The notes beneath the pieces are model-generated. The model was not told the origin of the DNA and ran no database searches. It saw nothing but the letters and a program-made list of their open reading frames with translations. A stretch of 64,000 nucleotides of DNA from an uncultured Methylomirabilota bacterium (GTDB taxonomy: Bacteria; Methylomirabilota; Methylomirabilia; Methylomirabilales; 2-02-FULL-66-22), in the NCBI GenBank assembly GCA_963845565.1, contig CAWJSJ010000002.1:2080001-2144000 (forward strand), given 5' to 3'. Both the position numbers and the translations under genes were made by a program. The first letter of the stretch is position 1; the number at the start of each line of letters is the position of its first letter. Below are positions 37,613 through 42,288 of this stretch, piece after piece.

Positions 37613-38020
37613 CGCGTACCTCTTGCGATTACCTGCCGACGTTTCGGCCCCGTGTGATGTCGTTGTCCCTGACGCTCTTCGCGTTGCGGGTCGTTTCGTG
37701 AAAATGCCGCGCATTTCCGAGGACGCCTTCGCGCGTATTGCACATGGCGGCGCAGCTTGGCGCACCCCGCCGGCAACTGTCAAGCGGAATCGCCGAGATA
37801 TTCGGCCTGTCGAGGGGTGTCGTGCGTCACGGTGCGTGCTGCTCGGCGGGCCCCGCGCGTCCCCGGGGGGCGCAAAGGGTCGGGTGGCGCGGGCGGCGCT
37901 GCCGAGACGTTTGCGTTGACACCTTTTCGCGGCGGGCAGTATACTGCGTCGCGCTTCGGGGGCGACGACGGCTGTGCTCCTGTTTCGCACCAGCGGGCAC
38001 GGGCCGCGCAAGGAGGGACC

Positions 38021-38977
38021 GTGGAACGGAATCTCGCGCTTGAAGTGGTCCGCGTCACCGAGGCGGCGGCCCTGTCGTCGGCCCGCTGGATGGGCCTGGG
38101 CAACGGGAAGGCCGCGGAACAGGCCGCGGTGGACGCCATGCGGCGGGGTTTCGACGCCGTCTCCTTCTGTGGCCGAGTGGTGATCGGTCAGGGCGAGCGG
38201 GACGAAGCGCCGATGCTCTTCATCGGCGAGCGGATCGGCGGCGGCGACGGGCCGGAGTTGGATGTCGCGCTTGGCCCCCTGGAGGGCTCGAACATCGTGG
38301 CGCAAGGGCGCGCCAACGCCCTGTCCGTAGTGGCGATCACCGAACAGGGTGGCCTGTTCCGGGCGCCGGATATCTACATGGAGAAGATCGCCGTCGGCCC
38401 CCGGGCCAAGGGGGCCGTGGACCTGAGCCTGACGCCCGCGCAGAATCTGGAGAGTATCGCCGGCGCCATGAAGTGTTACGTGGAGGATCTGACCGTCGTG
38501 ATCCTGGACCGGCCGGCCCACGCGGACCTGATTCGGTCTGTCCGCGAGGCGGGGGCGCGCATCAAGCTGATCCAGGATGGTGACGTGTCCGCCGCCATCG
38601 CTACGGCCTTTCCGGAGACGGGGGTCGATGTCCTGATGGGTGTGGGCGGGGCTCCCGAAGGCGTTCTGGCGGCTGCGGCGCTCCAGTGCTTGGGCGGGGA
38701 TATGCAGGGACGCCTGCGACCGCGGAACGACCAGGAGATCGAGCGGGCCCGCCGCGCCGGTATCAAGGAGATGGATCGGATCTACCGGATCGGCGACCTG
38801 GCGTCGGGCAACGAGCTGATGTTTGCGGCCACCGGGGCCACCGACGGCGACCTGTTGCGAGGGGTCCGGTTTTTCGGGGGTGGGGCGCGCACCCATTCGG
38901 TGGTGATCCGGCGCCGGTCCGGGACGACGCGGTTTATCGAGGCGACGCATCGGTTCGACCGCCGCCCAGTCTACTAA
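38021..38977 (+). CDS. glpX: GlpX (class II FBPase) homologue with substituted active-site residues
   Basis: RVTEAAAL, DEAPML, YMEK, DGDV, GGAPEGV, ATGATDG colinear with GlpX; carries E33/Q57/G85/S90/A166. Confidence 0.9.
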   Translation: MERNLALEVVRVTEAAALSSARWMGLGNGKAAEQAAVDAMRRGFDAVSFCGRVVIGQGERDEAPMLFIGERIGGGDGPELDVALGPLEGSNIVAQGRANALSVVAITEQGGLFRAPDIYMEKIAVGPRAKGAVDLSLTPAQNLESIAGAMKCYVEDLTVVILDRPAHADLIRSVREAGARIKLIQDGDVSAAIATAFPETGVDVLMGVGGAPEGVLAAAALQCLGGDMQGRLRPRNDQEIERARRAGIKEMDRIYRIGDLASGNELMFAATGATDGDLLRGVRFFGGGARTHSVVIRRRSGTTRFIEATHRFDRRPVY

Positions 38978-39127
38978 AAGGCTGCTGAAAAAGGCCCATC
39001 TACGGCGTTGGCGCGCTCGGGCGCTCGCTGCGGCGTACCCCAGTACGCCTCACTCGGCCCATCGCTTGCCGCCTTGTAGCTGGACCTTTTTGAGCAGCCT
39101 GGGTCTAAGTGGAGTCTTCGGCATCGT
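38975..39127 (-). mobile_element. Repeat family A copy 3 (short form lacking both GNA hairpin arms)
   Basis: TAAAAGGCTGCTGAAAAAGGCCCA...CTCGCTGCGGCGTACCCCAGTACGCC...TGGACCTTTTTGAGCAGCCTG. Confidence 0.82.
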
Positions 39128-39240: not shown

Positions 39241-40518
39241 GTGAACGTGATCAAGGGCATTCGAGGGGCTCCGGACATTCTTCCCGACGAGACGGGGAAA
39301 TGGCAGGCGCTCGAGACGGTGGCGCGTGACGTGCTGGATCGGTACGGCTATGCCGAGATTCGCACCCCCATCTTCGAGCGGACCGAGTTGTTCGTCCGCG
39401 GGATCGGTGAGGCAACCGATATCGTCGAGAAGGAGATGTACACCTTCGAGGACCGCGGGGGCGAAAGCCTGACGCTGCGTCCCGAAGCCACCGCCTCGCT
39501 GATGCGGTCGTTCGCAGAGCACAACCTGGCCGCCAAGAGCAGCCTGGTGAAGCTGTACCTGATCGGCCCGATGTTCCGGCACGAGCGGCCCCAGTCGGGT
39601 CGCTTCCGACAGTTCCACCAGGTGGACGTGGAAGCGATCGGCTCGCCGGGCCCTGCCGTGGATGCGGAGGTCGTGGCGCTGCTCCACCATCTGCTGGAGG
39701 CATGGGGTCTGCGCGGCGTGGAACTGCACGTGAACAGCATCGGGGACCCGGCCTGCCGCCCGCGATACCGCGACGCGTTCCTGGCGTACCTCGGGGGGCA
39801 TCGGGACGCGCTGTGCCCCGACTGCCATGTCCGGATGACGAAGAACCCGCTGCGTGTCCTGGACTGCAAGCAGCCGGCCTGCCGGGCGGTCGCCGCCACG
39901 GCGCCGACGCTCTCCGGGTATCTGTGTGACGCGTGCCGGGACCACTTCGCCGAGGTGCGTAGTCTGCTGGACGGCTTGAAGATCGGATACGAGGTGGATG
40001 AGCGGTTGGTGCGCGGGCTGGATTATTACACCCGCACGACCTTCGAGTTCCTGAACCCGGCGCTGGGATCGCAGAACGCGGTGGCCGGCGGAGGCCGCTA
40101 CGACGGCCTGGTCGAGGAGTTGGGCGGACCGCCCACGCCGTCCATCGGATTCGCCATCGGCGAGGAGCGGATCCTCACCTCTCTGGCCGCCCAAGCCGAA
40201 GCGGCCGAGACCCCCCCCATCACCGGAGTGTATGTGGCGACGGCGGGGCCGGTGGATCTGCGGGTGGCCATGGAGCTGACTCAGACGTTGCGGCGGAAGG
40301 GGCTGCGGTCAGCGCTGGACCTGGAGAGGCGCAGCCTGAAAGGGCAGATGCGGCAGGCGAACAAGGACCGGTTCCGGTACTCGCTGATCCTGGGGGCCGA
40401 TGAACTGGCGCGGGGGCAGGTCACGCTGAAGGACATGGTCGGTGGGGCGCAGCACGAGATTCCGCTTGCCGAAGCGGCCGATCGGTTGACGCACTTGCCG
40501 GAACGGGAGATCGTATAG
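39241..40518 (+). CDS. hisS: Histidine--tRNA ligase
   Basis: KEMYTF, LRPEAT, FRHERPQSGRFRQF, LVRGLDYY, GGGRYD. Confidence 0.99.
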   Translation: MNVIKGIRGAPDILPDETGKWQALETVARDVLDRYGYAEIRTPIFERTELFVRGIGEATDIVEKEMYTFEDRGGESLTLRPEATASLMRSFAEHNLAAKSSLVKLYLIGPMFRHERPQSGRFRQFHQVDVEAIGSPGPAVDAEVVALLHHLLEAWGLRGVELHVNSIGDPACRPRYRDAFLAYLGGHRDALCPDCHVRMTKNPLRVLDCKQPACRAVAATAPTLSGYLCDACRDHFAEVRSLLDGLKIGYEVDERLVRGLDYYTRTTFEFLNPALGSQNAVAGGGRYDGLVEELGGPPTPSIGFAIGEERILTSLAAQAEAAETPPITGVYVATAGPVDLRVAMELTQTLRRKGLRSALDLERRSLKGQMRQANKDRFRYSLILGADELARGQVTLKDMVGGAQHEIPLAEAADRLTHLPEREIV

Positions 40519-42288
40519 ATGAAGGGCTGGGAGCGGAGTGTCTACTGCGGCCAGGTCCAGGCCGCCCAGGTGGGAAAGACGGTCACCCTCAACGGCTGGG
40601 TGGATCGCCGGCGGGATCTTGGCGGATTGATCTTCGTCCACCTGCGGGATCGCGAAGGCATCGTGCAAGTGGTCTTCAACCCGGAGCAGTTTCCCGATGC
40701 GCACCGCTGCGCCGAGGAGATGCGGTCCGAGTATGTGGTGGCCGTCCGGGGCGAGGTCCGCCCGCGACCCGCCGAGAGCGTCAATGCCGACTTGCGCACC
40801 GGCGCGATCGAGGTGCTGGCGCACGCGGCGATCATCCTGAACGACGCCAAGACGCCCGTGTTCGCCATCGCGGACGAGACCGACGTGGCCGAGGACATTC
40901 GGCTGGCCTACCGCTACCTGGACTTGCGGCGTGCGCCGCTCCAGCGAAATCTGCGCCTGCGGCACCGATTCTACCAGACGACGCGGCGGTATCTGGACGG
41001 TCAAGGTTTCGTGGAGGTGGAGACGCCCGTGCTCACCAAGAGCACGCCGGAGGGCGCGCGGGACTACCTGGTTCCCAGCCGGGTGAATCCGGGAGAATTT
41101 TTCGCACTCCCGCAGTCCCCGCAGCTCTTCAAGCAACTCCTCATGGTGGCGGGGTTCGACCGGTACTACCAGATCGTCAAGTGCTTTCGGGACGAGGATC
41201 TCCGCGCCGACCGGCAGCCGGAGTTCACGCAGATCGACGTCGAGATGTCGTTCGTGGACCGCGACGCGGTCCTGGCGCCGATGGAGGGGCTGGTCGTCGA
41301 GCTGTTCCGCGAGGTGCGGGGGATTGAGCTGCCCCGGCCGTTCCCGCGCATCACGTTCGACGACGCGATCCGGCGGTTTGGTCTGGATGCCCCGGATATG
41401 CGCTTCGGCCTGGAGCTCCAAGATGTCGGCACGCTCTTCGCCGGGTGCGCGTTCCGGGCGTTTGCCCAACCCCTGGCGGCCGGCGGCCGCGCCATGGCCC
41501 TGAAGGTTCCCGGGCAGGGGGAGATCACCCGGAGCCAGCTCGACCTGCTCGAGACCTTCGCAAAAGGGTTCGGCGCCAAGGGGCTGGCCTGGTTCAAGAT
41601 CGGTCCGGACGGAATCACCTCGCCGGTGGCCAAGTTTCTCCCGGCGGAGCTGCTGCAACAGTTCCGCGAGCGGATGGGCGGCGAGGCAGGCGACCTGCTG
41701 CTCCTCTGCGTGGACCGGCCGAAGGTCGCCGCCGACGCCATGGGGCGCCTGCGGCTCAAGTTCGGCCACGAACTCAAGCTGATCGACCCCAAGGCGTTGG
41801 CCATCACCTGGGTGACCGAGTTCCCGCTGTATGAGTGGGACGAGAAGGAAAAGCGCTGGTCCGCCATGCACCACCCGTTCACCTCGCCGATGGACGAGGA
41901 CCTGGCGCTCTTCGACAGCGACCCCGGGAAGATCCGGGCGAAAGCGTACGATCTGGTGATCAACGGGGCCGAAGTGGGCGGCGGCAGCATTCGGATCCAC
42001 CGGCGCGAGGTCCAGAACAAGATGTTCCAGACCCTGGGCATCGGACCGGACGAGGCCAAGGCCAAGTTCGGCTTCCTGCTGGACGCGCTGGAGTACGGCA
42101 CGCCCCCGCACGGCGGGATCGCCTTCGGTCTGGACCGCCTGGTGATGATCCTGACGGGCGCCGATTCCATCCGGGACGTGGTCGCCTTCCCCAAGACACA
42201 GCGGGCCCAGGACCTCATGACCAAGGCCCCGTCGCCCGTGGACCCGGCGCAGTTGAAGGAGCTACACATCAAGGTGGATCTGGCGTAG
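40519..42288 (+). CDS. aspS: Aspartate--tRNA ligase
   Basis: [47 protein letters not shown]. Confidence 0.99.

Follow-up and report, generated by a model that had tools for sequence, protein, structure and literature searches.

The window, a stretch of 64,000 nt from an uncultured bacterium of the order Methylomirabilales, carries an open reading frame (38021..38977) on its forward strand, as are all features described here. By its profile matches, the 318-aa product has the fold of a class II fructose-bisphosphatase (FBPase); it is called pseudo-GlpX below. The frame starts with GTG, stays open over 318 codons and is preceded by the ribosome-binding site AAGGAGGG (38010..38017). This agrees with the first-pass annotation, which had described an intact frame with a good ribosome-binding site upstream of hisS-aspS. 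That gene order reaches well beyond this genome, as hisS (39247..40518) lies 3' of the orthologous glpX in 50 of 50 loci of the clade described below versus 0 of 77 GlpX outside it and 0 of 24 paralogues. The third gene of the likely operon is aspS (40519..42288), and in families outside this genus the operon often goes on with aspS-phoH and more housekeeping genes. The gap between glpX and hisS measures about 60-600 nt, once about 1,400 nt. The divergent upstream neighbor is often a PPi-phosphofructokinase (this genus) or an FBP aldolase/phosphatase, at times followed by a phosphofructokinase; this metabolic neighbor varies by family and is not adjacent to pseudo-GlpX in the present genome.

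A sigma-70-type promoter-like site (TTGACA-18-TATACT, 11/12; 37916..37945) lies upstream of the gene, where one such site was found and 0.1 were expected in shuffles. Sites scoring at least 9/12 occur within 170 nt upstream of 44 of the 50 orthologues, and for two of the other six hardly any upstream sequence is available. Four metatranscriptomes yielded contigs over parts of the gene. Some contigs, from two studies, start at ~37964-37971, close to the predicted promoter and at a point that DNA contigs run past, which gives a weak hint that transcription might begin at this promoter. Between glpX and hisS, a 125-nt element with inverted ends (window 38979-39103) is found. It has 235 blastn hits in the genome, where 99 elements share its end pattern, is plentiful in many metagenome runs and is probably a non-autonomous repeat of the MITE type.

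Pseudo-GlpX matches the Pfam family FBPase_glpX (PF03320) over its full length with 452 bits and reaches 381 bits against TIGR00330, passing the cut-off of 259. Its AlphaFold model (pLDDT 93.5) has a TM-score of 0.94 to 3roj, 3rpl and 2r8t, and the cyanobacterial FBP/SBPases (Synechocystis 3roj/3rpl; T. elongatus 5a5l) are the best Foldseek match. The GlpX proteins of E. coli (2r8t/3d1r), M. tuberculosis (6ayy) and F. tularensis (7js3) share the fold at TM-scores of 0.92-0.94 and are colinear in sequence; SuhB is a distant fold match only. The nearest named homologues come from candidate division NC10 and Candidatus Methylomirabilis, and all database names met for proteins of the clade read class II fructose-bisphosphatase.

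Active-site residues of pseudo-GlpX

Ten residues make up the active site of E. coli GlpX, namely D33, E57, D85, E88, T90, Y119, K164, R166, D188, and E213 (PMC5892879). In class II FBPases the main metal site consists of the motif DPxE/DGT together with E57, while R-P-R binds the 6-phosphate and IxDGD the furanose (PMC10289334). Pseudo-GlpX lacks five of the ten residues (33, 57, 85, 90, and 166). Asp33, a catalytic residue and metal ligand according to PMC5892879, is replaced by E33 (GAA, 38117..38119), and the metal ligand Glu57 by the subclade-defining Q57 (CAG, 38189..38191). The DPxEGT metal/nucleophile motif is degraded to G85-P-L-E88-G-S90 (38273..38290; GGC for G85 at 38273 and TCG for S90 at 38288). 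The main metal site of active enzymes, D85-P-x-E/D88 with E57, is consequently absent except for E88, and the catalytic pair D33-T90 is missing, with E33 and S90 in its place. The R/K-P-R pocket for the 6-phosphate is half-kept in D163-R164-P-A166-H167 (38507..38521), in which R164 and H167 are invariant and R166 has given way to Ala (GCC at 38516). E59, E88, Y119, R164, D186, D188, and E213 are retained, and the IxDGD furanose-binding motif is present with K182 ahead of D186-G187-D188 (38564..38584). Pseudo-GlpX thus shares Y119, R164, DGD, and E213 with the GlpX enzymes named above and differs from them in lacking D33, E57, D85, T90, and R166. All five substitutions, as well as G29, stand at the codons given in the first-pass annotation. 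As a substitution G29 is uninformative, however, since ordinary GlpX vary at this position (E, K, R, or N).

The corresponding nucleophile position has been mutated in the M. tuberculosis enzyme, where T84A is inactive with unchanged substrate binding and T84S has 11-20% of the activity left (PMC5485559). By itself S90 would not abolish catalysis, because T84S remains active. A single contig of run X11 covers 37853-39008 with five differences, none of them in the five substituted codons; in run X2, which belongs to a different study, all five codons are covered and identical. Assembly error as the source of these codons is ruled out by the X11 and X2 contigs.

Loss of catalytic residues across the Methylomirabilales

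Nearly all relatives searched within the order have a glpX match (59 of 60), but in the largest family outside the order only 6 of 150 genomes have one. The gene set analysed, a subset of these matches from which contig-end fragments were left out, comprises 74 glpX from 70 loci. Fifty of the 74 form one clade (SH-aLRT 99 in a tree with 25 of the 50, and recovered with all 50 in a second tree), here termed the hisS-linked clade. All ten catalytic residues are kept in 7 of its 50 members versus 75 of 77 GlpX outside the clade, the other two of which lack one residue; the loss of five in pseudo-GlpX exceeds chance. Close orthologues are therefore not all canonical; had they been, the first-pass annotation would have counted its reading as refuted. 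Its further suggestion, that the pattern E/Q/G/S/A marks a conserved clade, did not survive. Among 170 orthologues, made up of the 50 genes and the 120 nearest protein clusters, the exact pattern occurs in only two. Even within the 90% cluster of pseudo-GlpX position 85 is polymorphic: the 15 members listed (of 123) have G (8), D (4), or H (3).

Judged from the residue patterns, the true subclade is instead the group with Q57 and with neither T90 nor R166. Q57 is found in 77 of the 170 orthologues, and of these one has T90 and two have R166; D33 is kept in 58, D85 in 67, and A90 is present in 63. Other lineages carry other replacements. Family f4 mostly has E33/R57/E85 with P or A at position 90, and R57, E85, and R210 are fixed in 12/13 members each. 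Family f7 mostly has E33 and K57 with G90, and R212 in 9/9. Other members of the genus show R, H, or N at position 33. Because canonical members adjoin the Q57 group within the genus clade, catalytic residues have, on these trees, been lost at least twice independently, and the differing replacements between lineages suggest that there were probably three or more losses. The counts come from quick or FastTree trees whose root was not inferred, and the number is a lower bound. Lys or Arg takes the place of the metal ligand E57 at loci L028-L030 and L051-L069 (f4, f6, and f7), and the extra Arg at 210 (f4) or 212 (f7) looks as if positive side chains held the phosphate in place of the lost metal.

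Degenerate GlpX also occur outside the hisS-linked clade. Two of the three glpX copies in Methylomirabilis-type genomes are degenerate; the f7 genomes (L032-L047) hold a second degenerate glpX of 333 aa downstream of transketolase. This copy has V90 in 12/12, often Q59 and E186, and a median dN/dS of 0.071, indicating purifying selection; the f4 and f6 genes nearest to it are canonical. A tandem of the 333-aa gene with a canonical 326-aa glpX occurs in G046, G052, and G054, where a mixed tetramer would be possible. Of the best 150 GlpX representatives at 50% identity, 99 span positions 30-290, and 26 of these 99 are without at least two of the ten residues. In three of the 26 the absence seems to reflect gaps in the alignment, and some of the rest could be fragmentary genes or errors. 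The usual pattern among the 26 is that E88, R164, and D188 are present and D33, E57, and T90 lost. Twelve of them, placed on the tree with long branches and unsure positions, fall outside the hisS-linked clade. P0154, P0156, P0159, P0160, and P0164 (316-318 aa), also outside the clade, have lost the P1/metal residues and kept R164 and D188.

Site rates and the predicted tetramer center

Pseudo-GlpX is clearly not decaying. Median pairwise dN/dS, from pairs that are not independent, is 0.082 in the Q57 group (21 pairs), 0.096 in f4 (55 pairs), and 0.073 in f7 (36 pairs), compared with 0.094 and 0.089 in two mostly canonical groups. Purifying selection, for which the first-pass annotation had proposed dN/dS<1 as the sign, thus goes on in the degenerate groups at ~0.07-0.1. 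It is distributed unusually. Counted by parsimony on trees from which the catalytic columns had been left out, the P1/metal positions evolve at 1.75 times the mean site rate within the clade versus 0.02 times outside; catalytic sites that are invariant elsewhere are here faster than the average site. Segment 281-292, conversely, evolves at 0.11 times the mean rate within the clade versus 1.36 times outside, and residues 151-160 have a relative rate of 0.38 versus 1.54. Within the degenerate subclades, three groups of 77, 13, and 9 sequences, 4 changes were counted in the 281-290 hairpin versus the 41 predicted by family rates. The same subclades show no change at E59, R164, H167, G187, or D188, and one each at D163 and E213. 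The Q57 group has 9 changes at position 90 and 16 at R166; its dN/dS by class, again from non-independent pairs, is 0.28 for P1/metal, 0.075 for sugar/6-phosphate, and 0.00 for hairpin sites. In f4 (0.095) and f7 (0.072) the P1/metal dN/dS is at background, and the replacement residues are therefore largely fixed in these families. Such fixation would suit a re-used, constrained cleft as well as a dead site and would count against a cleft that was simply abandoned. The hairpin is equally fixed in 34 canonical members.

The frozen hairpin 281-290 (38861..38890) belongs to a beta-hairpin that spans residues 283-297 in the model. The slow patch 151-160 (38471..38500) follows helix 139-150 and is a predicted subunit contact. 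Class II FBPases form a 222 tetramer in which helix 6 contacts the loop between strands 11 and 12 (PMC5892879 section 3.3). The two slow patches would correspond to this helix-6/hairpin contact, and pseudo-GlpX would, going by its family, be a 222 homotetramer. In the Synechocystis enzyme Phe309 stacks on AMP (PMC5892879). AMP sits at the tetramer center, and the exchange R194H abolishes AMP sensitivity (PMC10507043). Alignment to 3roj places F285 of pseudo-GlpX (38873-38875) at chain position 343 and K182 at position 228, which translate to F309 and R194 via an inferred offset of 34 residues. Across the degenerate subclades F285 is universal (99 of 99 members) and K182 nearly so (97 of 99). 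The likeness to the cyanobacterial FBP/SBPases lies in the GVRFF-xGG-xRT hairpin with its AMP-stacking Phe and in a basic residue at the R194 position, a comparison that covers the two residues F285 (=F309) and K182 (Lys for R194). The difference is that AMP shuts off an active enzyme there, whereas pseudo-GlpX keeps the counterpart of the site with its catalytic residues gone. The frozen hairpin may also be a plain subunit contact.

Other enzymes for the reaction and the proposed role of pseudo-GlpX

A canonical glpX paralogue, which the first-pass annotation had proposed to look for, was not found by tblastn in the 5.36 Mb assembly (98.7% complete), where no glpX besides pseudo-GlpX came to light. 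A search of 21 genus genomes likewise detected no divergent second copy. Searches of the genome for class III and class V FBPases gave nothing, and class I FBPase had no match above the cut-off and one below it, an IMPase-like protein. Five phosphofructokinase-family genes of ATP, mixed, and PPi types are present on contigs C2, C4, and C5, and one of the five passes the cut-off for the PPi-dependent enzyme (NF010675). PPi-phosphofructokinase can run in reverse, replacing FBPase, and it is present in 21 of 21 genus genomes. In addition, an IMPase-family protein (C1 528390-528668) has as its best model the archaeal-type bifunctional FBPase/IMPase (161 bits, cut-off 264) and could possibly be a class IV FBPase. 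It therefore appears likely from gene content that other enzymes cover the FBPase reaction in this genome. The presence of a replacement enzyme does not, however, predict degeneration, as f2 and f5 are mostly canonical and yet have class V FBPase in 7 of 7 genomes. A complex prediction for pseudo-GlpX with the PPi-phosphofructokinase of the genome scored 0.00 in two runs, which carries no weight for or against binding. The genome also contains one low-score match to the RuBisCO family, possibly a RuBisCO-like protein.

In the clade, then, catalytic residues have been lost repeatedly under continuing purifying selection, the sugar-ring residues and the hairpin are fixed, and enzymes for the reaction are redundant. 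The first-pass annotation had regarded the protein as an inactive FBPase kept for another job. Purifying selection, recurrent loss across the order and the frozen AMP-site counterpart all bear this out. On balance we favor a catalytically dead tetramer that would bind a metabolite and regulate or scaffold a partner. Members of the hisS-linked clade with intact catalytic residues have a hairpin just as frozen, and the ancestor of this clade might therefore already have had a second, non-catalytic role at the tetramer center. Catalysis, redundant with reversible PPi-phosphofructokinase, FBP aldolase/phosphatase or class I FBPase, could then have decayed lineage by lineage, and the tetramer with its central site would have stayed the working part. 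The predicted ligand would be an AMP-type effector at the center, a fructose phosphate held by the half-kept pocket, or both, and its binding state would be passed on to the partner. AMP sensing specifically is a tentative proposal that we hold to be rather less probable than its opposite. Binding without catalysis may draw support from T84A, which binds substrate normally while inactive, and from A90 in most of the Q57 group. R166 is lost in this group, and sensing of a sugar phosphate would therefore be weakened in the present lineage.

Among the alternatives, an enzyme that uses the kept residues for novel chemistry or on a novel substrate, needing less metal, is improbable but fares best. 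E59, E88, R164, H167, D186, D188, and E213 are near-invariant in the degenerate subclades, and the fixed R57/E85/R210 of f4 and R212 of f7, at background dN/dS, might suit a remodeled cleft. It is disfavored because the replacements differ between lineages: no new residue recurs from one to another, position 85 is G, D, or H in one cluster, and positions 90 and 166 change as in an unused site. Weak FBPase activity sufficient for the cell is less probable still. It could draw on the hydroxyl kept by S90, comparable to T84S, on the retention of E88, Y119, R164, D188, and E213, and on the failure to find a class I, III, or V FBPase or a second GlpX in this nearly complete genome. The main metal site, however, is without D85 and without E57, A90 (the fully inactive variant) prevails in the subclade, with S90 nested among A90 relatives, and the genome offers a PPi-phosphofructokinase and the class IV-like IMPase/FBPase.

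To a similarly small degree we would credit the view that the frame has no function of its own and persists as the head of the essential hisS-aspS operon, under selection against misfolding or polar effects. Its position would suit this, as it is the first gene of the operon in all 50 loci and lies behind a conserved promoter-like site. Translational coupling to hisS is nevertheless absent, given the gap, which here even contains a mobile repeat, and the gene is matched throughout nearly the whole order. Moreover, the surface hairpin is frozen, yet ranks among the fastest parts of other GlpX, and avoidance of misfolding therefore fails to predict the pattern. The first-pass annotation had also considered a subunit of a hetero-oligomer. 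A dead regulatory subunit co-assembling with an active GlpX paralogue would fit the conserved interface and the further glpX, some of them canonical, of f7 (Methylomirabilis-type) and some f4/f6 genomes. For this genus such a subunit role is unlikely, and the co-assembly reading as a whole deserves very little credence, as selection is equally strong here although the searches found no second GlpX in this genome and no divergent one in the 21 genus genomes. Sequencing error or recent strain-specific decay has a negligible chance of explaining the substitutions: G85 is indeed rare (1 of the 120 nearest protein clusters), but contigs from independent studies agree in the five codons, 7 of the 15 listed members of the cluster, pseudo-GlpX included, have the full pattern, and dN/dS against the nearest genome is 0.052.

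Taken by its sequence record, the protein favored here as a non-catalytic tetramer is a class II FBPase turned pseudo-enzyme, and the evolutionary evidence for this is unusually clean. The literature covered, which leaves subscription journals mostly outside its scope and was available in part, describes neither a GlpX without catalysis nor the Methylomirabilales proteins treated here. Enzyme folds in non-catalytic roles are known from SuhB in rRNA antitermination, from HisZ and from the trypanosome prozyme. These resemble what is proposed for pseudo-GlpX, but they have known partners, and in the present genome no active paralogue was found. More broadly, GlpX might have a second job, residing in the center of its tetramer, as a sensor of AMP/energy charge or of fructose phosphate. 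This job might recur in numerous further lineages of dead GlpX, and pseudo-GlpX might represent a widespread sensor class, a generalization that we consider unlikely as it stands.

Metabolic reconstructions of Methylomirabilales, an order of sediment bacteria with nitrite-driven methane oxidizers among them, likely count dead GlpX copies as enzymes, because the database names all say class II fructose-bisphosphatase. Recurrent loss of catalysis beside an effector surface that stays frozen suggests that a core enzyme of gluconeogenesis has a non-catalytic role not yet described, and the live and dead orthologues of the clade, matched pairs with about 85% identity, provide material for finding it. 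If the sensor reading is true, the job would be so important that a whole order kept GlpX after several losses of its activity.
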